Assembly (NCBI GenBank): GCA_009784615.1
Contig: WRBJ01000001.1
Coordinates: 72,810-136,809, forward strand
DNA from: Defluviitaleaceae bacterium
GTDB lineage: Bacteria > Bacillota > Clostridia > Lachnospirales > WRAX01
DNA: 64,000 nt
Direction: 5' to 3'
Shown here: positions 6,078 through 49,088 of the stretch, piece by piece
Layout of the letters: each line of letters starts with the position of its first letter
Numbering within the stretch: the stretch's first letter is position 1
Position numbers and translations under genes: made by a program
Notes under the pieces: model-generated
The model's database searches: none
Told to the model about the DNA's origin: nothing
What the model saw: the letters and a program-made list of their open reading frames with translations, nothing else

Positions 6078-6296
6078 ATGTTTTTACGAAAAGACCAAAG
6101 AAGGCGACGTATGACAAGGGAAGAAGCTAACGCTATTTTGGAGCGTACAAAAACCGAAGAACCTTTGGAATTGGAAAAGGGCGATTTGTTTGCTATTCTT
6201 TTGGCGGCGGCAAAAACATTCGTTCCTGTTATATTAGTATTTTGCCTCTCTATGTTGTTATTATGGTGGCTTATATTTCACGTTTGGGCAAGCTAG
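6078..6296 (+). CDS. Small membrane protein, function unknown (start may be the ATG at 6111)
   Basis: 72-aa ORF with a basic N-terminus and one clear hydrophobic helix (FAILLAAAKTFVPVILVFCLSMLLLWWLIF). Coding status is not independently supported. Confidence 0.4.
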   Translation: MFLRKDQRRRRMTREEANAILERTKTEEPLELEKGDLFAILLAAAKTFVPVILVFCLSMLLLWWLIFHVWAS

Positions 6297-6369
6297 TTTT
6301 ATCCAAACAAACTAAAGCGTTTTGGGCGAGGCGTTATTTTGTCTCGCCCTTGTTAATGGGAGGTAAGAA

Positions 6370-8175
6370 ATGAGAAATAGTAAGTGGGAGCAAGTTAAAG
6401 CAAATGTATCATTATTTGCAAAAAGAAACAAAAAAGCATTAAGAAGGACGTATTGGACATTAGCGGCATTGTTTTTGGTTGGCTTTGGCGGAATGTTAGC
6501 ATATGTACAATTTATGGGATATTTTGACCCCATTAGCACGCCAGCTATGATGAGGATGACCCCAGATGAAATGCGTGAAATGCGTGAAATGGAGCAAGTA
6601 TTGTGGGAATATTGGCGTGAGCAATCCCGTCAAGGCGACTTTGCTGAAATGATGTGGCTTTTGCACGAAAACTATCCATTTTTTGAGATGGGTTTGCGCA
6701 ATGGCGTAGATATTGTAGGTATTGGCATTGATGCTTTTGCAGAGCTAGAAGGGGTTGCCGCACATCTATCAGGTACAGGCGGCTTTCAAGAGTTTATCAA
6801 TAGCTATTTTATGAACCATATTGGTGGCTTGGGCGGTTTGCGTATTGCGGCTGCGGCATCACGTACTGCGCTTTGGTTAAGTGAGCCTTATTATATGGGT
6901 CATTCTGACTTCCGTTTTTATGACGATAGGTTTGACGCACAGACAAGTGAGCAAAACCATCGTATGTCTATGGTTACAGATGATGTGGCGTATTTGCAAA
7001 TTGAGGCATTTTTGTCAAAGGGCTATACTCCTATTAATAATCATCCGTATTGGAGATATGATTTTAACGAAGAACGGCAAGAATTGTTGCGTGCATTTAG
7101 AAACGTCAACAACGCAGAGCATTTAATAATTGACATTAGAGGCATAAACGAAGGTTTTAGTGAATATTTTTTGCCGCTATTAATAGAACCAAATATTTAT
7201 GCACCTATTATGCAAAATTTCTACGCTTTCCATACAGGTGGCAATATGGCGATGGAAGTTAGCGCAAGTTTTAGAGAATTTCACAGCCTTGGCAGAACAT
7301 ACAATACAAATAGCCTTTTAGCAGATATGCCGATGGCGAATGTGGCAGATTTTGAAAATCTTATCCACGGTTTTGAAATTGCGCTTGAAGCAAATCCGAC
7401 ACAAAATAGCCCTGCATTCGGCGGGAAAATTTGGCTGTTGACAGATTCGGCAAACTTCTCTGGGATAAATCAAATGTATTTAGCTATGGCAGAAGAAGCG
7501 GGTTTTGAAATTCTTTATGTCGAAGATAATAATGCGCCACAATGGCCAGTGCCTTTTGCCAGATTGCCGCAAAGCGGTTTATCGGTGCGCCACAATGTTT
7601 TTTATTTCACAAACAATGACGGCATAGCTTTTGAAGAACAACGCATTGCAGGACATTACAACCTACAGGCTGATGTCGATGATGCATTAAGCGTCGCGTT
7701 TATGCATATAACAGGTGCAGAAATGCCGCATTTTGAGATTGCTCAAGAACCAAACGCAGAAATAGATGATATAATATCAATTACAAATGGCATTGCATTT
7801 GGCGATTTAAGCATTACTTTTAGTAATGAAGTTAGCGTAATCACCAATGAATTGGGCAATACGCTGGTGATTTTTGATGATGTAGATGGCAATTCAACTC
7901 TAATACATCAGCTTACAGCAAGTGCGCCTATGCAGAATTTTTCGTGGATAGCGGTTGGTATGAATGAAAGTGGCGAACTTTACGAAGCTGAAGTGCTGTA
8001 TGCCCACGACGGCGAAGTATCTGTATTTATAGTTAATTGGATAGAGTGGGGCACAGTACCACACCGTGGGGTATCATTTGTCGATGAAAATGGCAATGTG
8101 CGACGTTTTTTCATAGCTATGAACAATGCATATCCTGATGAAGGCGATGGCATATTCTTGCTTCGTGAGTTTTAA
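6370..8175 (+). CDS. Membrane-anchored protein with S41 (tail-specific protease)-like core, otherwise uncharacterised
   Basis: RBS GGGAGG, N-terminal TM. The segment LIIDIRGINEGFSEYFLPLL resembles the S41 vIiDLRgNgGG strand. The later LLTDSANFSGINQ resembles the S41 Ser region. Family assignment is from memory of motifs only. Confidence 0.55.
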   Translation: MRNSKWEQVKANVSLFAKRNKKALRRTYWTLAALFLVGFGGMLAYVQFMGYFDPISTPAMMRMTPDEMREMREMEQVLWEYWREQSRQGDFAEMMWLLHENYPFFEMGLRNGVDIVGIGIDAFAELEGVAAHLSGTGGFQEFINSYFMNHIGGLGGLRIAAAASRTALWLSEPYYMGHSDFRFYDDRFDAQTSEQNHRMSMVTDDVAYLQIEAFLSKGYTPINNHPYWRYDFNEERQELLRAFRNVNNAEHLIIDIRGINEGFSEYFLPLLIEPNIYAPIMQNFYAFHTGGNMAMEVSASFREFHSLGRTYNTNSLLADMPMANVADFENLIHGFEIALEANPTQNSPAFGGKIWLLTDSANFSGINQMYLAMAEEAGFEILYVEDNNAPQWPVPFARLPQSGLSVRHNVFYFTNNDGIAFEEQRIAGHYNLQADVDDALSVAFMHITGAEMPHFEIAQEPNAEIDDIISITNGIAFGDLSITFSNEVSVITNELGNTLVIFDDVDGNSTLIHQLTASAPMQNFSWIAVGMNESGELYEAEVLYAHDGEVSVFIVNWIEWGTVPHRGVSFVDENGNVRRFFIAMNNAYPDEGDGIFLLREF

Positions 8176-9070: not shown

Positions 9071-9418
9071 GGGGGCGCACTGGTTTCGACGGGGATTTTA
9101 AATACAGAGATAGCCATCCGCAGCGTCAACTGCGTCATCAAGGCAAACCTAAAATTAACTGACAAAAATGAATTAGCTTTTGCGGCTTAATTAAAAAGCC
9201 GTTGCCCGCCTAGATAATCTCATCGGTTTAGGCCTGGCATCGACTAGATGAGGCACTTTCGCCACGACCGCTTCGCCGTGGCGAAAAGACCCTAGAAGCT
9301 ACCTGCGGTAATGCTTTGTCGGTTTTGCATACCAAAGGGAAATTTAAAAATCGTCTATGATGGAAGAAGTCTTTGTGGGCAGGTTCTCGGACACGGGTTC
9401 AATTCCCGTCGCCTCCAT
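9071..9418 (+). ncRNA. ssrA: tmRNA (SsrA)
   Basis: 5' GGGGGCGCACTGGTTTCGACGGGG and 3' GGACACGGGTTCAATTCCCGTCGCCTCCA form a tRNA-Ala-like acceptor stem with a G3:U pair and a T-arm. The internal tag frame GCA AAC ... GCT TAA (9143-9190) would encode ANLKLTDKNELAFAA. CCA is not encoded. Confidence 0.85.
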
Positions 9419-11514: not shown

Positions 11515-11598
11515 CTCAAAACAGCATCAAATGTATAGATACGCTCAAATAACATCGCCCCATCAAAGTCACGAGAACTTTGGTGGGACGATAACTAG

Positions 11599-11671
11599 TG
11601 GAGAATACCGGACTTGAACCGGTGACCTCCTGACTGCCAGTCAGGCGCGCTCCCAACTGCGCTAATCCCCC
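11599..11671 (-). tRNA. tRNA-Ala (anticodon GGC)
   Basis: The reverse complement folds as a cloverleaf: acceptor GGGGGAT/ATTCTCC with G3:U70, anticodon loop CTGGCAG, T-arm ACCGG-TTCAAGT-CCGGT. CCA is not encoded. Confidence 0.85.
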
Positions 11672-14542: not shown

Positions 14543-14566
14543 AATACAAAAAGCGACCAAATCATT

Positions 14567-14589
14567 AAAAGCCCCTCAACGGGGCTTTT
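14567..14589 (+). terminator. Rho-independent terminator
   Basis: AAAAGCCCC-TCAA-CGGGGCTTTT followed by a T-rich tract. Confidence 0.7.
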
Positions 14590-14617
14590 GTTATTATGAA
14601 ATTTTTGAAAGATGAGA

Positions 14618-14646
14618 TTGATTGTTAGTCGGTTTTGTGGTATAAT
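14618..14646 (+). promoter_or_regulatory. Sigma-A promoter for the uvrB operon (TTGATT-17-TGgTATAAT)
   Basis: TTGATT at 14618-14623, 17-nt spacer with extended TG, TATAAT at 14641-14646. Confidence 0.5.
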
Positions 14647-14683: not shown

Positions 14684-16663
14684 GTGGATAAATTTGAGAT
14701 AGTATCAGAATTTGTGCCTACGGGCGACCAACCGCAGGCGATTGACGAGCTTGTGCAGGCTTTTAAGGGCGGCGAAAGGTTTGGTACATTGCTTGGGGTT
14801 ACAGGTAGCGGCAAGACCTTTACCGTGGCTAATATAATACAGCGTTTGCAGAAACCGACCATTGTAATGGCGCATAATAAGACGTTGGCGGCGCAGTTAT
14901 ATAACGAATTTAAAGAATTTTTCCCCAACAATGCCGTGGAATATTTTGTAAGTTACTATGACTATTATCAGCCAGAGGCTTATGTGCCTTCATCTGACAC
15001 CTATATAGAAAAAGATAGCGCAATAAATGATGAAATTGATAAACTGCGACACAGTGCCACAGCGGCTATTGCAGAACGTAATGACGTTATAATCATTGCG
15101 TCGGTATCGTGCATATATGGTCTTGGTTCGCCCATTGATTATAAAAATTTGGTGGTTTCTTTGCGACCTGGTATGACCAAAGATAGGGACGAGCTTTTGC
15201 GACGTTTGGTTGATATACAGTATAACCGCAATGATATGAACTTCCAGCGTGGTACATTTAGGGTACGTGGCGATGTTGTAGAAATCTTCCCTGCATACAG
15301 CGATACTACGGCTTTTAGGGTGGAATTTTTTGGCGACGAAATAGAGCGCATTGTAGAAATCGAGCCGCTGACAGGCGAAATTTTTGGGGCTAGGACGCAT
15401 ATATCCATTTTCCCCGCAAGCCACTATGTTACAACAAAAGAGAATATGGAAAGGGCTATTGCGGATATTGAGGAGGAGCTTGCGGCGCAGATAACATATT
15501 TAAAAGGGCAGGACAAGCTGATAGAGGCGCAACGCATTGCGCAACGCACACGTTATGATATTGAAATGATGCGTGAAATGGGCTTTTGCAACGGCATAGA
15601 AAACTACAGCCGCCACCTAACAAACGGTAAGGCGGGCGACGCACCGCATACTTTGCTTGACTATTTTCCTGATGATTTTTTGATTGTGGTGGATGAAAGC
15701 CACGTTACCCTGCCGCAGTTTAGAGGGATGTATTTAGGCGATAGAAGCCGCAAAGAAACGTTGGTGGACTTTGGCTTTAGGCTTCCTTCGGCTCTTGACA
15801 ACCGCCCGCTTCGTTTTGAGGAATTTGAGAAAAAGATGGGACAAGCGTTGTTTGTATCTGCTACGCCTGCTGTGTACGAAAAAGATAACTCGTCATTGAC
15901 GGTGGAGCAAATTATACGCCCGACAGGCTTGCTTGACCCCGAAATCTTCATACGCCCTATAAATGGGCAGATTGATGACCTTATCACCGAGATTAAAAAG
16001 GTTACAGAGCAAGGTTTTAAGGTGCTTGTAACCACGCTAACCAAAAAAATGGCGGAAGACTTGACAGATTATTTGAAAAATAGTGGTGTTGGTGTGCGGT
16101 ATTTGCATAGCGATATAAAAACGCTGGAAAGGCTTGAAATTATACGTGATTTGCGTATGGATGTTTTTGATGTACTGGTTGGCATTAACTTGCTAAGAGA
16201 GGGGCTGGACATACCCGAAGTAGCCCTTGTTGCTATACTAGATGCCGACAAAGAAGGCTTCCTTCGTTCCGAAACCAGCCTTGTGCAGACCATAGGGCGT
16301 GCGGCAAGAAACAGCGAAGGACGTGTAATTATGTATGCCGATAATGTTACACGCAGTATGAATTATGCCATAAGTGAAACCAACCGCCGCCGTGGCATAC
16401 AAATGGCATATAACGAGGCAAACGGCATAACCCCGCAAACCATAACCAAAAAAGTACACGACATCATCCAAGCCACAATGAGTGTTGAAGAAAAGAAAAA
16501 GTCCACAAAACTAGCCAAAGACCCAGAAAGTATGAACCGCGAGGAGCTTATAACATACATCAAACAGCTTGAAAAAGAGATGAAGCAAGCGGCGCAGGAT
16601 TTGAACTTTGAAAGAGCGGCTAATTTAAGGGATACAATATTTAAGACAAAAAAATTGTTGTAG
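14684..16663 (+). CDS. uvrB: Excinuclease ABC subunit B
   Basis: GTG at 14684 after [24 protein letters not shown], Walker [13 protein letters not shown] box, C-terminal UVR motif (FERAANLRD). The upstream Met at 14612 lies 5' of the predicted -10, so it is unlikely to be the start. Confidence 0.95.
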
Positions 16664-16676
16664 GGGAGGTTTGTCG

Positions 16677-18773
16677 ATGGGCAAAATCAAATTTATCGAC
16701 CTTTTTGCAGGGATTGGCGGTATACGTCTAGGTTTTGAAAGGGTTTTTGGTGATATGGGCAAAACGGTTTTTGTTAGTGAATGGGATTTGAATGCACAAC
16801 AGACATATAGAGCGAATTTTGGTAAAGAAATTGAAATTGCAGGCGATGTTACGTTGATTGACGAAAAAGATGTTCCTGCCTTTGATATTTGTCTAGCAGG
16901 TTTTCCTTGTCAGGCATTTAGTCTGGCGGGAAGTCGTAAAGGTTTCAAAGACAGCTTCAAAGGAAAAACAAGGGGTACATTGTTTTTTGATGTGGCAAGA
17001 ATTTGTTCCTTTCATAAGCCAAAAGTAATTTTTTGTGAAAATGTTAAAGGGTTGGCTATACACGACAAAGGCAGGACTTACAAAATTATTAAAAGCACGT
17101 TGGAAGAATTGGGATATACAGTGTATGAAAAAATACTCAACAGTAGGGATTTCGGTGTTCCGCAAAATCGTGAACGTATTTACATCGTAGCTTTTAGAAA
17201 TGATATTGACACAAGAACATTTAGTTTTCCTGAGCCAATAAATTCCAATATGCGAATTAAAAATATAATTGAAGAAACCCCTGTTTCGGCTAAGTATTAT
17301 TTGAGCGATGTCTATATCGAAACTTTACGAAGACACAAAGCTAGGCATAAGGAAAAAGGGAATGGTTTTGGATATGAAATTCGTGACTGGAATGATGTAG
17401 CAGGTACTATAGTATGTGGTGGTATGGGTCGAGAACGCAATTTGATAATTGACAAACGACAAACAAACCTAAATCCCATAACAAATATTAAGGGCACAAT
17501 TAACAACGAAGGCATACGAAAGATGACGCCTAGAGAATGGGCAAGATTGCAGGGTTATTCTGATGATTTTATTTTGACACTTGCAGATACACATTTGTAT
17601 AAACAATTAGGCAATTCTGTAACAGTGCCTGTTATACAAGCCATTGCAGAAAAAATAAAGCACACACTCAATAACCAAAGGGAGGCAAAGAAAATGGCTG
17701 TTAGAGGCAACAAAGGTGAATGGTCGGAGTTATATGTTTTGCTACGTTTGCTAGCTGAAGGAAATCTTTTTGCGGCAGACAAAAACCTTAATCGCATTAA
17801 AGATATGTTTTTTCCGATTATTAATATAATACGAGAAGAAGTAAAAGGCAAAATTTATGAGTATAGACCAAATCGAGATGATGCTCAAATTGAAATCTAT
17901 TTTAATGATGAGTTTGTATTAAAACTTCCTGCAAAGATTTTTGGCGATGAAGCAAGTAAATTATTTGATAAAATTGTTGCTGGTGGCTCAGGAAGCGGAG
18001 CTTTTGAAATTCCAGAAACGGAGAGTTTTATTAAGAATATTTATATCAATAAACCAAAGGCTGGCACTTCAACTAAATCTGATATGAATATCCAATTGCA
18101 CGATGTTAATACGGGGTTTGAAAATATTGTGGGTTTTAGTATTAAGAGCCAGATGGGTAGCCCTTCTACGCTTCTTAATGCAGGAAAATCAACAAACTTT
18201 ATTTATAAAATAAAAGGGATAGACCATAATAGAATTGGAGAAATAAATGCTATAGATACCCAGACTAAGTTAAAAGACCGCATAAACAGTATAGTTGATT
18301 TGGGAGGAGAATTTATTTTTGAAAATACAGATAACGCCAATTTTAGTAACAATTTATTTATGGTAGATAGCCAGATGCCAATAATTATTTCAGAAATGCT
18401 CGTTGGATTTTACAAAGATGGTGTTAAGAATTGCAAAGAACTGACTGAATATGTTTCAAAAATAAATCCTATTTTACGAGATGAACGTTTTTATCTACAT
18501 AAAATAAAAGAGCTTCTTTGCGCAATAGCTTTAGGTATGAAAACGACATCCATTTGGGATGGGACAGATGAAGCAACGGGTGGCTATATTGTTGTAAAAA
18601 ATGATGGTGATGTGCTTGCTTATCACATCTATAATCGTGATGCTTTCAAAGATTATTTGTTAGATAATACCAGATTGGATAAGCCAAGTAGCACAAGACA
18701 CGGATATGGAGTGCTTTATGAACAGAATGGAGAAATTTATATAAAATTGAACTTACAAATACGATTTAAATAG
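16677..18773 (+). CDS. Fused DNA (cytosine-5) methyltransferase / HpaII-like restriction endonuclease, single polypeptide
   Basis: ATG at 16677 after GGGGAGG. The N-half has C5-MTase motifs in order: [27 protein letters not shown]. From about codon 345, [20 protein letters not shown] starts a roughly 355-aa region that I recall as HpaII-family REase. There is no stop between the halves. Confidence 0.75.
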
Positions 18774-18787
18774 TGAGGACAAAAGAT

Positions 18788-21625
18788 ATGTCGAAGAACA
18801 AAATTGTGATTAAGGGTGCGAGGGAGAATAACCTCAAAAATATTGATTTAGAGATACCGCGGGATGCTATGGTTGTGTTTACGGGGGTGTCGGGTAGCGG
18901 CAAAAGCTCGCTTGCTTTTGAAACTCTTTATGCAGAGGGGCAAAGGCGTTATATGGAGAGCCTGTCGTCATATGCTCGCCAATTTTTGGGGCAGATGGAA
19001 AAGCCTGATGTGGATAGCATTGAAGGGTTGTCGCCTGCTATTTCTATCGACCAAAAATCTACCAACCAAAACCCACGCTCTACGGTGGGGACGGTTACGG
19101 AGATTTATGATTATTTAAGGTTGTTATATGCTAGGGTTGGCGTGCCGCATTGTCCAGAGTGTGGCAAGGAGATTGTGCGGCAGACGGTTGACCAAATTGT
19201 TGACCAAATTTTGGCATTGCCTGAAGGTAGCCGCATACAGCTACTTGCGCCTGTTGTGCGGGATAGAAAGGGCGAACACCAAAAGGTGCTTGACGAAGCA
19301 AAGAAAGAAGGCTATGCCCGTGTACGTGTAAACGGCACGGTGATGGAGCTTGCGGATGATATAAAGCTGGCGAAGAACAAGCGGCATAATATAGATATTG
19401 TGGTGGATAGGATTGTGGTGAAGGCGGGCATTGAGGCACGTTTGAGCCAGAGCGTGGAAACCGTTATGGGTTTGACGGATGGTATACTTGTTGTGGATAT
19501 TGATGGTGGCGAGGACTTGATGTTTTCGCAGAATTTTGCTTGTCCTGAACACGGCGTGTCGCTAAACGAGATAGAGCCTAGGATGTTTTCGTTTAACAAC
19601 CCATCTGGGGCTTGTAGCGAATGTGCTGGGCTTGGGTTTAAAATGGAATTTGACCCAGAGCTTATTGTGCCAAACGCCGATTTGTCGCTTGCGCAGGGGG
19701 CTATTACTGTACCTGGTTATAATAGCGTTGGCAAGACAGATTCTTGGGGTGGGTTTTTCTTTACAGCTTTGGCGAAACGTTATGATTTTAGCCTTAACAC
19801 GCCTTTTAAAAAGTTGCCTATGCAAATTAGAAATCTTATTATGTATGGTAATGACGGCGAGAATTTTCCTGTTGAATTTTTAAATCAAAGAGGCGAAAAA
19901 AGGGTTTATCAAAGCCATTGGGAAGGTATTGTACCGGGTGTTAGCCGCCGTTATAAAGAAACCAACAGCGAATGGAGCAGGCAGAATTATGAGGGTTTTA
20001 TAACAAATATAGAATGTAATATTTGCGATGGCAAACGTCTAAAGCCAGAGATTTTGGCGGTTACTGTTGGCGGGGTTAATATTGCAGATGTTACTGTTAT
20101 GCCCGTTGGGGCATTAGCAAAGTTTTTTAAAGAGCTTGCGCTTGGTGCAACACAGGCTGTTATTGCCGAGCGTATTTTAAAAGAGATTAAGGCAAGAGCG
20201 GGTTTTTTGGTTGACGTTGGGTTGGATTATTTGACGCTGGCGCGCTCTGCGGGGACATTGTCGGGTGGCGAGGCACAGCGCATACGCCTTGCAACACAAA
20301 TAGGTTCTGGGCTTGTTGGGGTTGTTTATATTTTGGACGAGCCATCCATTGGGCTACATCAACGTGATAATGATAAGTTGCTTAAAACCCTTCACCATCT
20401 GCGGGATTTGGGCAATACGTTGATAGTGGTAGAACACGACGAAGACACAATGCGTGAAGCTGACCATATTGTGGATATTGGGCCCGGTGCCGGTGTTAAT
20501 GGCGGCGAGATTGTTTATAATGGTGATATTGCGGGGATTTTGAAAGATGAAGATAGCATTACGGGCGCATATATGAGCGGTCGTATGGCTATACCCTTGC
20601 CAAAAAACCGCAGGCAAATGTGCGATAAGCGTTTGGTGGTAAAAGGTGCGGCGGAGAATAATTTGAAGAATTTGGATGTTGAAATTCCGCTTGGTCTATT
20701 TATTGCTATTACGGGTGTTTCTGGCAGTGGCAAGTCTTCGCTTATCAATGAGATTTTGTATAAACGGCTTGCTAGAGATTTAAACCGTAGCAAAGTAAAG
20801 CCTGGCAAGCACGAAGATATTACAGGGCAGGAGCATTTGGATAAAATTATAAACATCGACCAAAGCCCGATTGGGCGCACGCCACGCTCTAATCCTGCAA
20901 CATATACGGGTTTGTTTGATTTGGTGCGGGATTTGTTTGCGGCAACGCCAGAGGCAAAGGTGAGGGGCTACCAAAAAGGACGTTTTAGCTTTAATGTAAA
21001 AGGCGGGCGTTGCGAGGCTTGCTCTGGTGATGGTATTATTAAGATAGAAATGCACTTTTTGCCTGATATTTTTGTGCCTTGCGAGGTTTGTGGCGGCAAG
21101 CGTTATAACCGTGAAACGCTTGAGGTTAAATATAAGGGTGCGACAATTGCGGATGTGCTTAATATGACTGTGGAAGAAGCATTAGCTTTTTTTGAGAATT
21201 TGCCACGTTTGCGAGATAAGGTGCAGACGCTGTATGATGTAGGGCTGTCTTATGTTAAGCTGGGGCAAAGCTCCACGACATTATCTGGTGGCGAGGCACA
21301 GCGTGTTAAACTAGCGACGGAGCTTTCTAAACGTAGCACAGGGCGTACAATTTATGTGTTAGACGAGCCGACAACGGGCTTGCATATGGCGGACGTTCAT
21401 AAGCTGGTGGATATTTTACAGAAGCTGACGGATGGCGGTAATAGCGTTGTTGTTATCGAGCATAATTTGGATGTTATCAAAACTGCGGATTATATTATTG
21501 ATTTGGGACCAGAAGGCGGACACGGCGGCGGCACTATTGTTGTGCAGGGTACGCCGGAGGAAGTGGCGAAGTGCAAAAAGTCATACACAGGGCAGTATTT
21601 GAAGAAGGTTTTGAAGAAGAAGTAG
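18788..21625 (+). CDS. uvrA: Excinuclease ABC subunit A
   Basis: [21 protein letters not shown], two ABC modules (GVSGSGKSS twice, LSGGEAQR twice), zinc-finger Cys pairs. Confidence 0.95.
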
Positions 21626-21668: not shown

Positions 21669-22667
21669 ATGCTAAATAAGGTTCAAGAAAAATCATATAA
21701 ATTAATTCAGGCAGATGCACGATTTTTATATAATTTAACAAGAGTGTTTAAAAGCCCTAATGCCCCTAAAAGCAATTACATTATGATGTTGCTACCTTTC
21801 ATTGGTCTCTTTGCTGATGGTTCTGAACAATGGGGAAGAAAGGTTAAAATAGGTGCACCAGTTTTCCAAGATGAGGAAAAAAAGTATTATACGGAAATGC
21901 GTAAATCTATAAAAATGTTCGATATTACCTATGATGAGTTATTCGACACATTAAAAGATACTCTTAATAAAAGCGACAAATATTATTACGATATTCGTAC
22001 TCTTCGTTCAAAATTGTGTGGGATGTATTATAATGCTGGTGTTGATTTGCAGGGTAATACTTTTTGTGGTAATACTATTTTATGTTCAATTTATGCTCCA
22101 TTTTACAAGTTTGGTGACAAACAATATGGTAAAAAAATAAATAACATAAGCGTTGTTGCGGGAAGTCTAGCGGCATTTTATGGTGATAGTAACGCTCAAT
22201 CTTATGGTGTTAATAATAGCTTGACGTTCAGGTCTAAAGATTATCATTTTTTCAGCAAATGTCCTAGCGGCATTAAAGATTATGATAAATTTTTATTATT
22301 TTCTATATTGTGTAGCGTGAATTTTGTGAGAGTTTTTATAAATCAATACTTTGTTGATGAGTTCCCTGCAAAATTACGTTTTGCGTATTTGAAATACTAT
22401 TACTTAACAACTTTAATTCCGCAAATAAACCAAAAACTTGCAACCAATTTCACTATTAATCTTCAATACAAAAATGACAAATTTAGAAATTGTATGGCAC
22501 ATTATGGACTTGGTGCAGTTCTAAAAGAAGATGATATTATTGAGGACGATATGCTTTATGGGCTTTCAAACCTACTTTTAAAGATGTCATATAAAGATAC
22601 AAAAACAGCGATTTATTACGAATTAGATTCATTTTCAAAACAGATAACAGAATATCTGCTTTTATAG
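21669..22667 (+). CDS. AT-rich orphan protein with RNxxxH (HEPN-like) motif, possible Abi-type RNase
   Basis: 332-aa ORF, visibly lower GC than uvrA. FRNCMAHYGLG near the C-terminus fits the HEPN Rx4-6H signature. No TM segment or signal peptide. Confidence 0.5.
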   Translation: MLNKVQEKSYKLIQADARFLYNLTRVFKSPNAPKSNYIMMLLPFIGLFADGSEQWGRKVKIGAPVFQDEEKKYYTEMRKSIKMFDITYDELFDTLKDTLNKSDKYYYDIRTLRSKLCGMYYNAGVDLQGNTFCGNTILCSIYAPFYKFGDKQYGKKINNISVVAGSLAAFYGDSNAQSYGVNNSLTFRSKDYHFFSKCPSGIKDYDKFLLFSILCSVNFVRVFINQYFVDEFPAKLRFAYLKYYYLTTLIPQINQKLATNFTINLQYKNDKFRNCMAHYGLGAVLKEDDIIEDDMLYGLSNLLLKMSYKDTKTAIYYELDSFSKQITEYLLL

Positions 22668-34842: not shown

Positions 34843-34927
34843 GCCCGAATGGCGGAACCGGTAGACGCACAGGACTTAAAATCCTGCGACCTCAACAGTC
34901 GTGCCAGTTCGAGTCTGGCTTCGGGCA
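34843..34927 (+). tRNA. tRNA-Leu (anticodon UAA), class II with long variable arm
   Basis: Acceptor GCCCGAA/TTCGGGC, anticodon loop CTTAAAA, variable arm GACCTCAACAGTCGT, T-arm GCCAG-TTCGAGT-CTGGC. Confidence 0.9.
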
Positions 34928-35052: not shown

Positions 35053-36162
35053 CTAATTTAATAAATCAACTGTTTCTTGCTTCATATTGGGCATTGCGTG
35101 GCTGTAGATGTCAAGAGTAATTTGCACTGATGCATGTCCCAAAATTTCACTCACAACCTTAATATTTGCGCCTTTTTCAAGCAATCTTGTTGCGAAGGTG
35201 TGTCGTAAAGAATGTACATTTATTTCGTTTGATAATTCGGCTTTATCCAAAGCACGCTTAAATGCTTTTAACACTTCACGAGATGCAGTTATTGCATTAC
35301 TTCGTGAAGAAAAAACAAATATACCGCCTTTTTTCTTTTGCTCTAAAAGTATATTCCTGACCGCATTATTTATAGGTACTTGTCGTGTACCTTTGGACGT
35401 TTTAGGTTCTGAAATTATAATCTTTGTTTTGGTCGTTGCGCCCTCATCACGATTTCTAACTCTTGTTGAGGTCTTGTCTACAGAAATGAAACCACTATTA
35501 AAATCTATATCACTCCATACCAAAGCAGATATTTCACCAATGCGCATACCTGTATTAAGAGCAAACACAAACATATTTCCAAATGTGCTTTCGGGTATGT
35601 TGCGTAAAAATATTTCTTGTTCTTCAACCGTCATTGCACGATTGACTTTCGGTTTGACTTTGGGAACAACTAGCGCATCGCAAGGGTTTCTGTATAATAT
35701 TTCATTCTTGATTGCTTGTTTGAAACTTTGGCTAAGAACAATATGAACACCTTTTATTGTGCTTGTCGAAAAATTCGCTTTGTACATATCGTTGTAAATT
35801 GACTGTATCATCTCGGGGCGTAGCTTCGTTAGCTTGATATGTCCTATTTTATCTCTTGCGTGCTTGTTAAAAGACATTTCGTATTTGTCATATGTAGATG
35901 ATTTTAATTCTATCGCCTTATAATTCTCTAACCAAAAGTCCACCCACTCCGCTACAGTGTAATCACTGCTGACTGTAGCAATATTGCGCCGCAGTTTGTA
36001 TTTCTCATTTTCCATCTTCTCAAGCAGTTTCTCTCTGTCCATAGACGAGAAACTTTTTTTATTGCGCTTGCCGCTTGCATCATACCCCAAAGTTATCTCG
36101 CCACGCCAAAGCCCCTTTTTGTCTTGCCATATAGTACCTTCGCCGTGTGTTCGTTTTGGCAT
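35053..36162 (-). CDS. int: Tyrosine-type site-specific integrase
   Basis: N-terminal SAM-like arm/core-binding domain. Catalytic region ...MRIGEISAL...HSLRHTFATRLL...LGHASVQITLDIYSH. Confidence 0.9.
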   Translation of the reverse strand: MPKRTHGEGTIWQDKKGLWRGEITLGYDASGKRNKKSFSSMDREKLLEKMENEKYKLRRNIATVSSDYTVAEWVDFWLENYKAIELKSSTYDKYEMSFNKHARDKIGHIKLTKLRPEMIQSIYNDMYKANFSTSTIKGVHIVLSQSFKQAIKNEILYRNPCDALVVPKVKPKVNRAMTVEEQEIFLRNIPESTFGNMFVFALNTGMRIGEISALVWSDIDFNSGFISVDKTSTRVRNRDEGATTKTKIIISEPKTSKGTRQVPINNAVRNILLEQKKKGGIFVFSSRSNAITASREVLKAFKRALDKAELSNEINVHSLRHTFATRLLEKGANIKVVSEILGHASVQITLDIYSHAMPNMKQETVDLLN

Positions 36163-42573: not shown

Positions 42574-42855
42574 ATGCAAGCATTACTATTTATAGCTTTA
42601 CTATTCTCTATTCAAGCATTGGCGTTTGGCTTTATTATAATTGTAGCCCTAATAGATGCGAAAAAACGAGGTGGCTTGTTTAGTGAAAAAGGTGCGAAAA
42701 TAATTGTAGTAACCTATGTTATTACTGCATTTATAACTGGGTTTGCTTATTTAGTAATAGATTTTCCACCATTCTCTAGCCAATGTGAAGTGATTGAGGG
42801 GGTTATGTGTGTATGTGAGGTGGTAGAGCGACTAAAAAACCTAAGAAAAAACTGA
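42574..42855 (+). CDS. Small membrane protein (start uncertain; TTG at 42556 is an alternative)
   Basis: Two hydrophobic helices. Sits directly upstream of the coupling protein gene. Confidence 0.45.
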   Translation: MQALLFIALLFSIQALAFGFIIIVALIDAKKRGGLFSEKGAKIIVVTYVITAFITGFAYLVIDFPPFSSQCEVIEGVMCVCEVVERLKNLRKN

Positions 42856-44717
42856 TGCGTGAAATAATAATGAACATAGTTATCTTTGCAGTGTTTGGTC
42901 TTTTAAGTGTTTACTTAAATACTACTTTTAATTTAATGGCAATTGACAACGTCATACTAGCCGTCATTGTCGGCACAACTGCCGTGTTGCTCTATATTTT
43001 TACCAAAGACAAGCGCAAATATCGCAAAGGAATAGAACACGGCTCTGCTCGTTGGGGTGCAAGAGAAGATATATTTCCATTTATGGATTTCTACAGTCCG
43101 CAAACTCCAAAGAATACATCAAATACAAAATCATCATTAAGTACAAAACCCACCAAGCCGCCAAAAGTTATCATACCAAACAAAATCGCAAAATCAAATA
43201 TCATACTAACCGCCACAGAAGGGTTGACAATGACAAGCCGTCCCAAACTACCAAAACACGGACGTAATAAAAATGTTCTAGTCTTTGGTGGTTCAGGTAG
43301 TGGTAAAACAAGGTTTTTTGGTATGCCTAACATTATGCAAATGCACAGCTCCTATGTGATAACCGACCCTAAGGGCGAACTCTATCTTTTTCTAAGTAAA
43401 TTATTAAAAAGATTTGGCTATGATGTACGTGTTCTCAACCTTAAAGAATTTGATAAGTCGATGGGTTATAACCCTTTTGATTACATAAACAAAGAAGACG
43501 ATATTCTAAAGGTTGTTAATGTTATTCAAAACAGCACTACCGAAAATACAAAATCAAGCGCAGACGGCGACTTTTGGACGAAAAGCGAAAAGCTACTGTA
43601 TATGGCTTTGATAGGCTATATCAAATTTCACGTCAAAGATAAAACCCTACACAATATGAACACCTTAGTAGATATGGTTACAAAAATGGAAGTTCGAGAA
43701 AACGACGAAACATTCAAAAGTCAAATAGACAAAGACTTTGAAAGAATAGCCGAAATGCACCCTAATGATTTTGCTGTTAGGCAATATCGCAAATTCAAGC
43801 AAGGGGCAGGAAAAACACTAAAATCAATTATAATTTCCTGCGGCGTTCGTCTTTCTGTTTTTGATATTGCCGCAGTACGTAGGGTTATGGAACAAGACCA
43901 AATGAAACTAGAAACCATAGGCGATAGAAAGACTGCATTATTCATTATAACGGACGACTCAGACACTACATATAACTTTATCGCCGCTATGCTTTATACT
44001 CAAATGTTTAATGTGCTAATTAACCGTGCGGAAACAAAGTATGCCTCAAATGGTAATCGCCTACCTATTCACGTTAGATGTATTTTAGATGAGTTTGCAA
44101 ACCTCGGTAAACTCCCTAACTTCCAACGACTTATATCAACAATACGAAGCCGTGAAATATCTGCTTGTATAATAGTGCAATCATTAAGTCAGATAAAAGA
44201 AATTTACAAAGATAGTATGAACACCATCATAAGCAACTGCGACAGCAAGCTATTTCTTGGTGGTGATGATGAGGAAACCCTAAAATATCTAACTCGTGTC
44301 ATCGGCAAAGAAACCATTGATACAATGGATAATTCCGAAACCAAAGGTAAAAGCGGTTCTTTTAGCAAACAGTACAAAAAACAGGGTCGTGAATTAATGA
44401 CAACGGATGAGCTGGCAAGGCTTGATGGTGGTAAGTGTGTTTATATCTTGCGTGGTGTTCCGCCGTTTTTGTCGGAGAAGTACGACATCGAAGCTCATCC
44501 AGTCTATCCATTTATGCAGAAATTGAATAAGATTGCAATACAAAACCCAATGCAACAAGCAAATCCTAACCGACGACCACATCAACCACCACAACACCCT
44601 AATAAACTTCTATCTTCACAAAGTATAAAGCAATCTCACAATCTAAACACACGAAACAAAAACATACATAATCCAACCCGTGTGAACAAAAAAATCAAAG
44701 GAGGAAACCAATTATGA
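42855..44717 (+). CDS. virD4: Type IV coupling protein (VirD4/TraG family)
   Basis: Two N-terminal TM helices, Walker A GGSGSGKT, Walker B ILDEFANLG. Confidence 0.85.
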   Translation: MREIIMNIVIFAVFGLLSVYLNTTFNLMAIDNVILAVIVGTTAVLLYIFTKDKRKYRKGIEHGSARWGAREDIFPFMDFYSPQTPKNTSNTKSSLSTKPTKPPKVIIPNKIAKSNIILTATEGLTMTSRPKLPKHGRNKNVLVFGGSGSGKTRFFGMPNIMQMHSSYVITDPKGELYLFLSKLLKRFGYDVRVLNLKEFDKSMGYNPFDYINKEDDILKVVNVIQNSTTENTKSSADGDFWTKSEKLLYMALIGYIKFHVKDKTLHNMNTLVDMVTKMEVRENDETFKSQIDKDFERIAEMHPNDFAVRQYRKFKQGAGKTLKSIIISCGVRLSVFDIAAVRRVMEQDQMKLETIGDRKTALFIITDDSDTTYNFIAAMLYTQMFNVLINRAETKYASNGNRLPIHVRCILDEFANLGKLPNFQRLISTIRSREISACIIVQSLSQIKEIYKDSMNTIISNCDSKLFLGGDDEETLKYLTRVIGKETIDTMDNSETKGKSGSFSKQYKKQGRELMTTDELARLDGGKCVYILRGVPPFLSEKYDIEAHPVYPFMQKLNKIAIQNPMQQANPNRRPHQPPQHPNKLLSSQSIKQSHNLNTRNKNIHNPTRVNKKIKGGNQL

Positions 44718-46123: not shown

Positions 46124-46522
46124 ATGAACAACCTAAACCAACCAAACCAAGAACTATCCGTTAAAATCCCAAAAGACCTAGAAAAAATGAGGGTCAAGGT
46201 AGGTGCATTTACCAAAAGACAATGGGCATACCTTGTCATAGCGGGCGTTTTAGGCTTTATAGCATATCACGCCACGGTAAGTCTATTAGGCACAACAGGG
46301 TCGGTATGGATAACAATGTTGGTCATTGTACCTTTTGCCATAATAGCCTTTAAACACAAAGACGGTATGTCAATGGAGCAAATATTATTGCTAAGAATAC
46401 GTTACATATTATTTCCGTCAAATCGCAAATACAAAGGTCGCTTCTTGGGTTCTATAAAAGAACAACAAAAGGGGGTATCACATAATGGTGCAAGCATCTC
46501 AAAAACAACAAGCGGCGCATAG
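46124..46522 (+). CDS. PrgI-like (VirB3-like) T4SS membrane protein
   Basis: KIPKDLEKMRVKVGAFTKRQWAYLVIAGVLG followed by two TM helices. Immediately upstream of VirB4. Confidence 0.6.
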   Translation: MNNLNQPNQELSVKIPKDLEKMRVKVGAFTKRQWAYLVIAGVLGFIAYHATVSLLGTTGSVWITMLVIVPFAIIAFKHKDGMSMEQILLLRIRYILFPSNRKYKGRFLGSIKEQQKGVSHNGASISKTTSGA

Positions 46523-49088
46523 GTTGCCGCAAAAACACAACCCTGCTCCAAAATCTATATTAATCCAATCCCGAGAGTGGGCATACAAACGCATCTTTGG
46601 TCAAGCTATAGCACCGACCACTATACAGGACACTATTCCTTATATAGCAATGTATGAAGATGGTGTATGCTACGTATCAGATGGGTACTACACAAAGACA
46701 ATCGCAATTACAGACACTAGCTTTCAGTTACTAGATGAAAAAGGCAAGCAAGGTTTTTTCGACAAATGGTGTGGGTTGTTTAGTTTCCTACGTGAGCCTG
46801 TTACGCTACAGCTTACATATATGAACACGGCTACAGACACAAGGGATATAGAAAATATGCTTAGTCCTCATCAATCGCAAGCACAGGATGACTTTACGCA
46901 TATACGAAAAGAGTTTTACGAGATGTTAAAACAAAAGCTAGTAGCGGCAAAGAAGGGTCTAATGCGCCGCAGATATGCGACAATCGGCGTGTATGTTAAG
47001 AATATAGATGAAGCTCGCAGTAGGCTTTTGGGCGTGGAGAGGGAAACTATTAAGATACTCAACAGCATAGGTGCATTGGCTTTTCCTTTGGATGGTAAAG
47101 AGCGACTTGCATTATTACACAAACAAATGCATCCAAACCCGAAACATAAATTTTCTATGGGACGGTTTGATGATAAAGACGGCAAGAAGAATAGCGATGA
47201 TAGAAATATTATAAGTGCTTTCCCTGCTGATATTACCGCAAAAGTTGCAAATGATTTCTCTTTCGCTCCAACAAAAGACTATATTGTGCCACAAGCAATT
47301 ATTTTTAGCAAAAACCAATTTACATTAAACTATTCCGCCACAGCCAGTACAAAAAATCCAAAAAGAAACGTCCGTCCATCTTTCGCCGCAATGTCGTATC
47401 TTGAAATTGATGCCGAAAGACTGCCCGAAAGTTTCTTGACAAAAATGTTAGATACTGAATACCCCATCGCCATCAACATACACATACGCCCAATAGATAA
47501 AGCTAAAGCAATAAAATACGCTAAAAATAAACTTGCAGATGTTAATGCGGCGAAAGCAAGTAAGCAGAAAAAAGCCTTTAGGGATAAAGTAGACCCTGAT
47601 ATGTTGCCACCTGACATAAAAATGTTTTCCGATGCGGCGCAAAGTTTGGTGCAAGAGCTACAAGGTGATGAAGAATATTTTGATATGCAGTTTCTCGTAA
47701 CACACTTTTCAGATAATCCCCAAGACCTAGAAAGTAGGGTACTAGCTACAAAGGGTTTGGCATCACAGTATAGCTGTAACATTAAAAGGCTTGACTATAT
47801 GCAAGAACAGGGCTTTGCATCCTATCTTGCACTAGGTAAAAATCAAATCCCAAAGCAGATAGTGCGTAAGCTGTACACAACAGCTCTTGCGGCATTGATA
47901 CCTTTTACCACAGGCGAAATATTCCAAAAAGACCCGCAAGCAATATATTATGGCACAAATTCTATATCGGGTGTTGTAATCCTTGCCAATCGTAAGTTGT
48001 TAAAAAATCCAAATAGCGTAGTGCTAGGAATACCAGGTAGCGGCAAATCTTTCTTTGTGAAAAGGGAGTTTATACACGTATTCCTTGTTACCTTAGACAC
48101 AATATTGATACTAGACCCCGAGGGGGAATATTCGCCATTAGTTAAGGCGTTAGGTGGAGTAGTTATAAAAATATCGACCTCATCTAACAACCACATAAAC
48201 CCATTAGATATTGTTTGGGACTATGGCACAACCGAAGAACCGCTTGACCCACTAGGGCTAAAATCGGAGTTTGTGATGTCTATGATGGAAACGATAACAA
48301 CAAGACCTCACGGCTTGTATGATATTGAAAAATCTATAATTGACCGCTGTGTAAGAAAGATTTATGAAAAACATTGCAAAAATGCAATCCCCGAAAATAT
48401 GCCTATACTTTCGGATTTGTACGATGCACTACAAGCAGACTTCGACCCCAACGACCCAATTAATCCAACCATTAAAAAAATGGCTAGTAATCTTGCGCAA
48501 GCATTAGATATGTACGTCAATGGCTCGTATACGATGTTTAATCACCGCACTAACATTGATACAACCAACCGCATTATATGCTTTGATACAAAGTCATTAG
48601 GTGGTGGTATGCGACCTCTTGCAATGCTTATCATACAAGACCAAATATGGGGCAGGATTTCATACAATCGCTCTATTGGTAGAGGTACGTGGACTTATAT
48701 AGATGAATTTCATCTACTACTACAACATCAGCAAACAGCAGAGTATTCTGTAGAGATGTACAAGCGTTTCCGTAAGTGGAGCGGAATACCCACGGTCATT
48801 ACACAAAACGTAAAAGACTTTTTGCGTTCTTCACAAGCAAAAAACATAATTGATAACTGTGAGTTTGTAGCACTGTTAGACCAGTCCCCCGATGATGGTT
48901 TGATACTTATGGAGCGTCTTAAACTATCAGAAAAACAGCTTGCACACGTAACTAATGCAAATGTAGGTGATGCCCTTATCAAGTATGGCAATACCATTAT
49001 AACGGCAACAGATAGGTTTCCGACCGACACGCAGTTGTATAAGTTGATGACCACCAAACCTAGTGATTTGCACGAAGGCGTAAGATAA
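46485..49088 (+). CDS. virB4: VirB4-like conjugal transfer ATPase
   Basis: TIQDTIPYIAMYEDGVCY N-terminal motif, Walker A GIPGSGKS, Walker B YIDEFH. Confidence 0.85.
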   Translation: MVQASQKQQAAHRLPQKHNPAPKSILIQSREWAYKRIFGQAIAPTTIQDTIPYIAMYEDGVCYVSDGYYTKTIAITDTSFQLLDEKGKQGFFDKWCGLFSFLREPVTLQLTYMNTATDTRDIENMLSPHQSQAQDDFTHIRKEFYEMLKQKLVAAKKGLMRRRYATIGVYVKNIDEARSRLLGVERETIKILNSIGALAFPLDGKERLALLHKQMHPNPKHKFSMGRFDDKDGKKNSDDRNIISAFPADITAKVANDFSFAPTKDYIVPQAIIFSKNQFTLNYSATASTKNPKRNVRPSFAAMSYLEIDAERLPESFLTKMLDTEYPIAINIHIRPIDKAKAIKYAKNKLADVNAAKASKQKKAFRDKVDPDMLPPDIKMFSDAAQSLVQELQGDEEYFDMQFLVTHFSDNPQDLESRVLATKGLASQYSCNIKRLDYMQEQGFASYLALGKNQIPKQIVRKLYTTALAALIPFTTGEIFQKDPQAIYYGTNSISGVVILANRKLLKNPNSVVLGIPGSGKSFFVKREFIHVFLVTLDTILILDPEGEYSPLVKALGGVVIKISTSSNNHINPLDIVWDYGTTEEPLDPLGLKSEFVMSMMETITTRPHGLYDIEKSIIDRCVRKIYEKHCKNAIPENMPILSDLYDALQADFDPNDPINPTIKKMASNLAQALDMYVNGSYTMFNHRTNIDTTNRIICFDTKSLGGGMRPLAMLIIQDQIWGRISYNRSIGRGTWTYIDEFHLLLQHQQTAEYSVEMYKRFRKWSGIPTVITQNVKDFLRSSQAKNIIDNCEFVALLDQSPDDGLILMERLKLSEKQLAHVTNANVGDALIKYGNTIITATDRFPTDTQLYKLMTTKPSDLHEGVR

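Follow-up and report, generated by a model that had tools for sequence, protein, structure and literature searches.

The 64,000-nucleotide stretch analyzed here (the window; positions 72,810 to 136,809 of contig WRBJ01000001.1 of a Defluviitaleaceae bacterium) carries, between the excision-repair genes uvrB and uvrA, a single open reading frame (ORF) that joins a C5-cytosine methyltransferase (M) to an endonuclease of the HpaII family (R). We propose, with a probability of about 0.75, that this is a natural single-chain restriction-modification (R-M) gene that combines an M.HpaII-type methylase with an HpaII-family nuclease, targets CCGG, and was fused by a small insertion or deletion (indel) from a two-gene system resident in the uvrB-uvrA gap. 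As judged from its sequence, this single-chain CCGG-type gene is probably active. It is one instance of a widespread, recurrently arising, and uncharacterized variant of the HpaII-type system.

One open reading frame encodes a C5 methylase and an HpaII-family nuclease

The ORF runs unbroken on the + strand from an ATG at 16677 to 18773 (698 codons plus stop in the ORF listing), and an in-frame TTG at 16671 would lengthen it by two codons to 700 aa. The sequence-only reading of this DNA, made earlier without database searches, had described one uninterrupted frame spanning both halves, and this holds with either start (698 codons from the ATG, 700 from the TTG). The gene is made up as follows:

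16677..18773, + strand: fused M-R ORF (ORF listing, Pfam, identical DNA in three other assemblies)
16686..17663, + strand: C5 cytosine methyltransferase domain, aa 4-329, with motifs I, IV, VI, VIII, IX, and X (PF00145, TIGR00675, invariant motifs)
17664..17708, + strand: junction or linker, aa 330-344, derived from the 3' end of M and the 5' end of R (comparison with split L172)
17709..18767, + strand: HpaII-family endonuclease domain, aa 345-697 (PF09561, PADLOC REase_II, AlphaFold2)

Hidden Markov model searches of each half gave full-length matches above the cut-off. The N-terminal half matched Pfam DNA_methylase (PF00145) over aa 4-329 (E 2e-95; 320 bits against a cut-off of 22; profile positions 1-324 of 324) and also TIGR00675 dcm of NCBIfam (E 2e-98; 330 bits against a cut-off of 100.65). 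The C5-methyltransferase motifs lie in the canonical order that had been read by eye, and all those named at that time were located: DLFAGIGG (aa 8-15), GFPCQAFS (75-82), ENVKGL (121-126), QNRERIY (163-169), and GNSV (312-315). They map to motif I FxGxG (F10-G15), motif IV PCQ (P77-C78-Q79), motif VI ENV (E121-N122-V123), motif VIII QxRxR (Q163-R165-R167), and motif X (G312-N313), and the variable target-recognition region lies between motifs VIII and IX. Motifs I, IV, VI, VIII, and X are invariant in 74 aligned fused homologues (48% to 62% identity). The best relative of this half in the Protein Data Bank (PDB) is M.HhaI, with an alignment that spans motifs I-VIII and IX-X. The C-terminal half, recognized from the start as HpaII-like from about codon 345, matched Pfam RE_HpaII (PF09561) over aa 345-697 (E 4e-120; 402 bits against a cut-off of 25; profile positions 1-359 of 359), and the nuclease-family signature starts at aa 343. 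PADLOC called both MTase_II and REase_II on the ORF (the latter as PDLC03563, E 9e-95).

The visual impression that the gene is AT-richer than uvrB and uvrA was correct, its GC content being 0.345 (0.264 at third codon positions) compared with 0.438 and 0.457, respectively. The mean GC content of the 41 ORFs in the window is 0.393 +/- 0.036, and the fused gene ranks sixth lowest; it is AT-rich relative to its neighborhood without being an extreme outlier.

The nuclease half retains a candidate PD-(D/E)XK active site

The HpaII family was assigned the PD-(D/E)XK fold by Steczkiewicz et al. (PMC3424549), and E351, D476, and S488-x-K490 are the candidate residues of this active site in the fused protein. 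Among the 74 fused homologues, N345, G347, E351, Y353, R386, S488, K490, N501, and N524 are invariant and D476 is present in at least 90%. The alignment of these candidate residues bore out the early assignment of this half: the family-invariant putative PD-(D/E)XK residues are all kept, in an intact 355-codon frame of 33% GC that is 42% diverged from its nearest relative. AlphaFold2 modeled the R domain alone with a predicted local distance difference test score (pLDDT) of 95.7 and a predicted template modeling (TM) score (pTM) of 0.91. In this model the conserved D (R residue 137) is found at the end of strand 131-136, strand 143-152 contains S149-x-K151, and helix 7-22 contains E12, a predicted placement that matches the PD-(D/E)XK core layout. 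The full-length model (pLDDT 90.7, pTM 0.62) dips at the linker (pLDDT 70 in block 331-340) and is that of two independent domains tethered by a linker. A PDB sequence search with the R half gave no match, and because the R domain has no solved relative we treat the catalytic assignment as putative.

The fused gene is not an assembly artefact

The 2,097-nt gene and its 200-nt flanks are identical in ENA ERZ27257297 (a 147.7-kb contig), Logan SRR5215140, and Logan SRR10512952, which stem from different data sets, and in all three assemblies uvrB lies upstream and uvrA downstream of it. The sequence-only reading had raised the possibility that an assembly frameshift near 17690-17720 hides a stop. 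An error of this kind, in which a missed base conceals the stop separating two genes, would need little, since fused and split forms are only 1-2 nt apart, sometimes within short A-runs. However, four independent assemblies from different runs agree over 2.5 kb, and more than 100 diverged fused homologues exist, many on several contigs and one in a closed RefSeq plasmid. The identical DNA in the three other assemblies rules this explanation out; it is effectively refuted and we give it practically no weight.

Fusions arise repeatedly from two-gene systems by 1-2-nt changes

We searched the fused protein against 5.8 billion proteins. The best 120 matches are all 540-770 aa long, carry both Pfam domains, and are 48% to 62% identical to the query; their hosts are Defluviitaleaceae, Oscillospiraceae, Selenomonadaceae, and other Clostridia. 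The fused architecture is present in at least 118 protein clusters, and linker length and sequence vary among them. A further fused gene of 654 aa is the only R-M gene of pFPK_1 (L258 2498-4462, NZ_CP009446.1; locus numbers with L are ours), a closed 8.8-kb mobilizable plasmid of Francisella philomiragia, a host that is cultured. Its RefSeq product name, "HpaII family restriction endonuclease", hides the methylase half. The target-recognition region of the pFPK_1 methylase is much shorter than that of the window's, and the specificity of the two enzymes may differ. The organization had been called unusual and possibly undescribed; given the clusters and the RefSeq plasmid gene, this is an overstatement, while we indeed found no paper that describes such a fusion.

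Scanning metagenome contigs with an alignment of the nuclease half showed that 6 of the 80 closest nuclease loci are fused and about 70 have separate M and R genes, the remainder having no upstream M or lying at a contig edge. Among 76 non-redundant split loci, 36 have an M stop and R start that overlap, by 1-20 nt; a gap of 1-14 nt separates the two in 32 loci and one of 25-41 nt in 8 loci, and the Shine-Dalgarno (SD) sequence of the R gene usually lies inside the last M codons. Because stop and start overlap or lie at most 14 nt apart in 68 of these 76 loci, an indel of 1-2 nt suffices to fuse the two genes. Such a step can be read directly in near-identical human-gut loci, where the junctions of the fused L207 and L209 and of the split L198, L200, and L201 differ by one A ("ggaaaatg" in the split form, "ggaaatg" in the fused one), which brings M into frame with the R ATG. 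When the nuclease was searched against representatives clustered at 50% identity, the top 150 were all stand-alone proteins of about 360 aa, and this listing gives no count of fused forms. In a neighbor-joining tree of 267 nuclease domains, about 40 fused-only clades are interleaved with about 48 split-only clades, and the largest fused-only clade has 27 members with divergence down to 49% identity. This interleaving and the 27-member clade indicate that the fused state arises often and can persist. By these comparisons, frameshifts in the usual two-gene form have given rise to the fusion again and again.

The nearest relative of the window's nuclease half, and its sister in the tree, is a stand-alone protein of 363 aa (P0121, 59% identity). 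Its gene lies on L172-L174, contigs from a related Defluviitaleaceae genome whose UvrB and UvrA are 85% and 81% identical to those of the window. The L172 gap holds, in order, uvrB, a GNAT acetyltransferase gene, M, R, an HNH remnant (104 aa), and uvrA. The L172 M protein (343 aa) is 72.5% identical to the window's M half, and the R gene overlaps M by 14 nt in a different frame. The junction reads AAC GAA AGG CGG CGA AAC A/ATG in L172 and AAC CAA AGG GAG GCA AAG AAA/ATG in the window (slash before the R start codon). From the conserved AAC to the R ATG there are 19 nt in L172 and 21 nt in the window, and this 2-nt length change takes the M stop out of frame. Most likely, as far as sequence comparison can tell, the uvrB-uvrA gap already housed an HpaII-type system of two genes, and these merged in the lineage of the window. 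With A-runs of just 3-4 nt at the junction, phase variation there was set aside.

The uvrB-uvrA junction is a cargo hotspot

The fused gene and the genes on both sides of it form a compact array:

14566..14590, + strand: terminator-like hairpin ending the upstream gene and forming the 5' limit of the transcription unit (10-bp stem, 5 GC pairs, T-run)
14618..14646, + strand: best promoter-like site, TTGATT-17-TATAAT with extended -10 TG, presumed promoter of uvrB, the R-M gene, and uvrA (consensus match only)
14684..16663, + strand: uvrB, likely start GTG 14684 behind AAAGGGG (Pfam UvrB_inter, UvrB, Helicase_C, UVR)
16664..16669, + strand: SD sequence of the fused gene, GGGAGG, directly after the uvrB stop and 7 nt 5' of the ATG (sequence)
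18774..18779, + strand: SD sequence of uvrA, TGAGGA, directly 3' of the R-M stop (shared with L167 and L170)
18788..21625, + strand: uvrA, ATG 18788 (Pfam UvrA_inter, UvrA_DNA-bind, ABC_tran)

The uvrB homologues begin at the equivalent of MEKFEIV. Both uvrB and the fused ORF end in TAG (16661-16663 and 18771-18773), and the four boundaries given by the sequence-only reading (uvrB stop 16663, ATG 16677, stop 18773, uvrA ATG 18788) are exact. Its statement that neither gap holds a terminator or promoter agrees with our site scan, which found no promoter-like or terminator-like site in the 13-nt and 14-nt gaps flanking the fused gene. The picture of an accessory, AT-richer cargo inside the uvrB-uvrA operon is thereby supported. 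Because nothing separates the three genes, they would be co-transcribed, and the fused gene is presumably transcribed from the uvrB promoter with uvrB and uvrA. No LexA/Cheo box (GAACN4GTTC, at most one mismatch) was found near the uvrB promoter, and the count of such boxes in the window is below chance; SOS control of the R-M gene is unsupported.

As a background we scanned Firmicutes contigs with UvrB (80 loci, all at most 72% identical and none from the window's own family). In 48 of these 80 loci uvrA lies downstream of uvrB; the gap is at most 500 nt in 42 of the 48, mostly 9-80 nt, and the other 6 hold unrelated inserts of 1-2 kb. Five Defluviitaleaceae relatives of the window (UvrB 83% to 92%, UvrA 80% to 92% identical) carry five different inserts, all in operon orientation and with tight spacing:

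L167 7980-9371 (L167/L168): ferredoxin-like membrane protein and an unknown protein
L169 5024-6009: unknown 339-aa protein
L170 7983-10536: gap insert
L170 7993-10518: three-gene system within it, encoding a 325-aa PDDEXK_3-like nuclease, a 326-aa C5 methylase, and a 196-aa HNH protein
L171 7983-8476: gap insert
L171 7980-8456: its sole cargo, an IS200/RAYT-like protein of 158 aa whose start overlaps the uvrB stop
L172 3431-6425: split HpaII system

The C5 methylase of L170 is just 36% identical to the window's and belongs to a different R-M system, and the L171 protein has a weak Y1_Tnp match (E 0.0036) and an HUH-like NHLHMVI. L167 and L172 share 92% identity in both UvrB and UvrA and have wholly different cargo. 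At the uvrA-proximal end of the insert, the window, L167, and L170 all retain the native uvrA leader (ATAAA)GTGAGGA/G. In L172, a degenerate copy of the L170 HNH gene (6092-6406, 47% identical) adjoins uvrA, and this remnant hints at successive cassette replacement. A truly empty uvrB-uvrA site was not found in the family, where each relative examined has a different cargo and the closest UvrB (93%) is on a contig that ends within uvrB; the comparison with an empty site envisaged in the sequence-only reading thus gave none.

In this Defluviitaleaceae group, then, the space between uvrB and uvrA is a hotspot for cargo. For this reason we see no need to explain in functional terms why the gene lies inside an excision-repair operon; nor is the position peculiar to it, the same HpaII-type system being present unfused in a sister. 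A functional tie to excision repair was set aside: other cargos are a ferredoxin-like membrane protein, a GNAT acetyltransferase, and an IS200-like gene, and there is no LexA box. Sibley and Raleigh reportedly described in 2004 a comparable situation in the Immigration Control Region of E. coli, where restriction genes are said to vary like cassettes between conserved flanking genes. Both regions are fixed slots that hold varied restriction systems or cargo in related strains, but the uvrB-uvrA slot is a junction of 10-60 nt whose cargo is operon-oriented and without detectable signals of its own.

The ancestral nuclease start is retained inside the fused gene

Two elements of the former R gene can be recognized at the junction:

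17679..17685, + strand: internal SD sequence AGGGAGG, 8 nt 5' of the internal ATG (sequence)
17694..17696, + strand: retained ancestral R start codon (Met340), candidate internal initiation site (SD, homology to split R starts)

ATG 17694 is homologous to the R start of split relatives and is the only in-frame ATG of the fused gene with an SD sequence upstream. AGGGAGG occurs only twice on the + strand of the window, and here it uses minority codons (AGG, 6 of 38 Arg; GAG, 7 of 45 Glu). The linkers vary in other respects, yet 101 of 118 fused homologues (86%, compared with 17% expected) have kept a Met no more than 10 aa from NKGEW. To judge by the sequences, most fusions are young or else the internal start still serves for initiation, and a free 359-aa nuclease can probably still be made from that start. 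The "enforced 1:1 synthesis" of both activities that had been proposed for this gene is therefore doubtful, the ancestral R SD and ATG being intact within the ORF. What the fusion does enforce is that the methylase always carries an attached nuclease domain, although a 1:1 ratio is not guaranteed, and it makes absolute the translational coupling that is already typical of the family.

CCGG is depleted in the window and in the split sister locus

For palindromes in the window we compared observed counts with those of a second-order Markov (trinucleotide-based) model. It predicts 107 CCGG sites and there are 18, a depletion of about six-fold. The sister locus L172, which has the split HpaII system, shows 0/17 (observed/expected), and three sisters without the system show 57/56 (L167), 28/26 (L169), and 71/79 (L171). 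In the conjugative element resident in the window, CCGG is absent against 32 expected. CCGG depletion tracks the system among the sisters, which supports sustained CCGG restriction in the lineage. The proposed target also agrees with tested HpaII-family pairs from Haemophilus, Algibacter, a katablepharid mitochondrion, and Flavobacterium, which act on CCGG (PMC8099122, PMC11837570).

The R-M gene itself lacks CCGG, and sites occur in host genes, two in tRNA-Ala and one in tRNA-Leu. Two CCGG in tRNA-Ala had already been noted, at 11607 and 11619; both are present in this gene (11598-11671, - strand) and 11619 is right, but the first lies at 11608, one base further. Four of the 18 window sites are in uvrA (19934, 20484, 20490, and 21554; 4 observed, 7 expected), and uvrB has 0/5.

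Other palindromes are also scarce in the window: GATC 2/160, CATG 6/218, GGCC 12/145, and CGCG 23/146. GATC avoidance is common to all sister loci, CATG avoidance is confined to the window, GGCC and CGCG vary by genome, and the L170 flanks are depleted in GGCC too (8/69). This pattern suggests strain-specific sets of further restriction systems outside the window.

Comparison with known restriction-modification systems

Of known systems, that of HpaII with its two genes comes nearest, and both parts of the fused gene are ordinary members of well-known families. The fused gene shares with the HpaII system of Haemophilus parainfluenzae (M.HpaII and R.HpaII) the families PF00145 and PF09561 and the order M then R on one strand. 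Other tested relatives are FpsJI of Flavobacterium psychrophilum (PMC11837570) and the Algibacter and katablepharid-mitochondrial HpaII pairs (PMC8099122). In HpaII-type systems M and R are tightly packed, Vsr is often nearby, and CCGG specificity is probably common to them and the fused gene. They consist of two polypeptides and stand alone or ride a mobile element, whereas in the window the M stop is gone, a single 698-aa chain is encoded, Vsr is missing, and the gene is embedded in the uvrB-uvrA operon. Of the traits of two-gene Type IIP systems, the separate M and R frames are absent and the SD and start of R near the M 3' end are retained. Many HpaII-type loci, fused and split, have a second C5 methylase (34% to 42% identical) just downstream, often after Vsr; no second C5 methylase or Vsr was found within the 64-kb window. 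Such second methylases lie at the following positions:

L087 8068-8988
L088 6729-7262
L089 8149-9054
L002 10740-11690
L175 6525-7430
L179 6496-7413

The closest parallel in design is RM.Eco29kI, an engineered fusion of a Type IIP nuclease and a 5-methylcytosine (m5C) methylase in which both activities are kept (Mokrishcheva et al. 2011, PMC3039593). Its authors predicted natural counterparts; compared with the split system it has full methylase activity, 3-fold lower nuclease activity, and 100-fold lower phage protection (PMC3039593). Like the window gene it places a palindrome-cutting Type IIP nuclease and a C5 methylase in one chain; to construct it, the overlapping stop and start between two head-to-tail genes were removed. 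It differs in being artificial, in the order R then M, in its GIY-YIG nuclease, and in the replacement of the start codon, which leaves no internal initiation; the window gene is natural, runs M then R, is of the PD-(D/E)XK type, and keeps an internal SD and ATG.

Type IIC/IIG/IIB enzymes such as MmeI, BcgI, Eco57I, BpuSI, and TstI likewise have R and M domains in one polypeptide. They combine an N6-adenine (gamma-class) methylase with a shared recognition module, cleave outside the site, and often depend on S-adenosylmethionine (PMC3039593 Table 2; PMC12707154), whereas in the window gene a C5 methylase and a nuclease, each predicted to be self-sufficient with its own recognition apparatus, are joined by a linker. 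The sequence-only reading had remarked that single-chain enzymes are typically N6-adenine methylases, and the characterized ones are (PMC3039593 Table 2). Formally, the fused architecture, with its predicted activities, falls under Type IIC, in which one polypeptide has nuclease and methylase domains; the adenine methylase, shared module, and distant cleavage are typical traits of the characterized enzymes and do not formally define the type. A recent review notes that single-chain enzymes could be regulated by assembly, the monomer methylating and the dimer cutting, and by analogy this would be a plausible benefit for the window's chain. Our literature search on natural m5C methylase-nuclease fusions, HpaII-family fusions, and uvrB-uvrA hotspots found nothing on point.

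A model for the fused gene and its alternatives

In the model that we favor, the ancestor would have been a two-gene system with overlapping M stop and R start, probably already in the uvrB-uvrA gap. An indel of 1-2 nt just 5' of the R start would have put the M stop out of frame, so that M reads into R. Initiation at ATG 16677 would yield a 698-aa M-R chain, the cell's sole source of this methylase, which would protect host CCGG sites as m5C. Nuclease activity would come from the R domain of the chain, probably together with free 359-aa R from ATG 17694, and incoming unmethylated DNA would be cut.

Several points weigh against this model. We infer both enzymatic activities and the CCGG specificity from sequence, and the catalytic role of the candidate residues from conservation and the published fold prediction (PMC3424549); a Foldseek comparison of the high-confidence R model with the PDB gave nothing at E<0.001, the top match being HinP1I (E 0.03, TM 0.2-0.3). 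L170, with its different cargo, is likewise depleted in CCGG (3/39), and the depletion could predate the fusion or reflect another CCGG system elsewhere in the genome. In several other hosts of HpaII-type genes, fused or split, CCGG is not depleted (L001 47/29, L002 37/42, L179 23/27, and L207 9/7); there the genes often adjoin mobile-element genes, a setting that points to recent arrival. Of 87 loci of this type, 52 have an adjoining Vsr gene; that of the window has none. By analogy with RM.Eco29kI, fusion may weaken restriction. Finally, exchange of cassettes between lineages and vertical descent of a gap-resident system cannot be told apart.

The most serious competitor is a gene that still functions as two proteins, in which free R from ATG 17694 would be the working dimeric nuclease and the long chain essentially a methylase with a tethered, largely idle R, the loss of the stop having been near-neutral. 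The strong SD in minority codons before the only such in-frame ATG is what this predicts, as is the retention of the Met across variable linkers, and SD-like purine runs also stand 5' of that Met in L001, L002, L179, and L207. The trivial indels behind the fusions and the many scattered singletons in the tree fit as well. A purine-rich linker may, however, merely encode Lys, Arg, and Glu; a Met within 10 residues is missing from 17 of the 118 fused homologues, no obvious SD is present in L213, and the 27-member fused-only clade suggests that the chain itself is workable. We doubt this explanation on balance while giving it real weight. That the fusion instead cripples the nuclease by steric hindrance or impaired dimerization, leaving mainly a CCGG methylase with an R half heading for loss, appears improbable to us. 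RM.Eco29kI with its reduced phage protection is a precedent, many fused lineages are singletons, and the undepleted hosts and the missing Vsr would be in keeping with it, but the R half is intact and has kept every family-invariant residue despite its 42% divergence, CCGG is depleted in the chromosome and absent from the resident conjugative element, and fused forms persist through deep divergence and provide the sole R-M gene of a plasmid.

A fused R-M gene with a specificity other than CCGG has, in our view, a slim chance. In its favor, the target-recognition region of the fused Francisella homologue is much shorter, and with GGCC, CGCG, GATC, and CATG depleted too, and CCGG scarce around the different cargo of L170, depletion alone does not assign CCGG. 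Against this, the tested pairs of the family all act on CCGG (PMC8099122, PMC11837570), among the sister genomes CCGG depletion follows the system (18/107 and 0/17 where it is present, ratios of about 1.0 in three sisters that lack it), and CATG depletion is unique to the window. We therefore retain the single-chain CCGG-directed R-M gene as the preferred explanation. A bolder reading, which we offer tentatively and consider rather unlikely, is that HpaII-type M-R fusions form a natural and recurrent single-chain m5C Type IIC class in which the chain itself is a working nuclease favored by selection, and that the uvrB-uvrA junction is a dedicated R-M exchange slot. A possible advantage would then be that the monomer methylates first and cuts only after dimerizing at higher concentration, allowing safe establishment without a C protein, and R-M cassettes would be swapped by recombination in the flanking core genes.

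The biochemically proven single-chain R-M enzymes are adenine methylases with a shared recognition module, and the only m5C example that we found in the literature was built in the laboratory; the window locus and its relatives indicate that predicted single-chain m5C R-M enzymes occur naturally and repeatedly. These loci also reveal the exact mutational step, an indel of 1-2 nt where stop and start overlap, and the fused allele and its unfused sister occupy one and the same chromosomal position. Such sisters are a natural experiment on how R:M stoichiometry and translational coupling bear on the safety and strength of restriction, and the CCGG contrast among sister genomes is an unusually clean in silico sign of past activity. 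The practical value is modest: the genes are candidate single-chain CCGG enzymes, and the label "HpaII family restriction endonuclease", which hides a methylase, is a warning for annotation.

Other features of the window

An integrative conjugative element lies at 34.9-56 kb of the window, integrated next to tRNA-Leu (34843-34927); with this tRNA gene the region is 34843-56000. Its parts include the following, in addition to Toprim, ParA, and M23 peptidase genes:

35053-36162, - strand: integrase
42855-44717: coupling protein
46485-49088: VirB4-like ATPase
53944-55377: relaxase

Palindromes are purged from this element more than from the chromosome (observed/expected: CCGG 0/32, GGCC 0/36, GATC 0/65, CATG 1/74, CGCG 2/37). 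Directly after uvrA lies an ORF of 332 aa (21669-22667, + strand, GC 0.30) for which Pfam, PADLOC, and NCBIfam gave no match; its segment FRNCMAHYG shows an Rx4H pattern that we take to be reminiscent of HEPN nucleases. A tmRNA gene with the tag peptide DKNELAFAA is located at 9071-9417.

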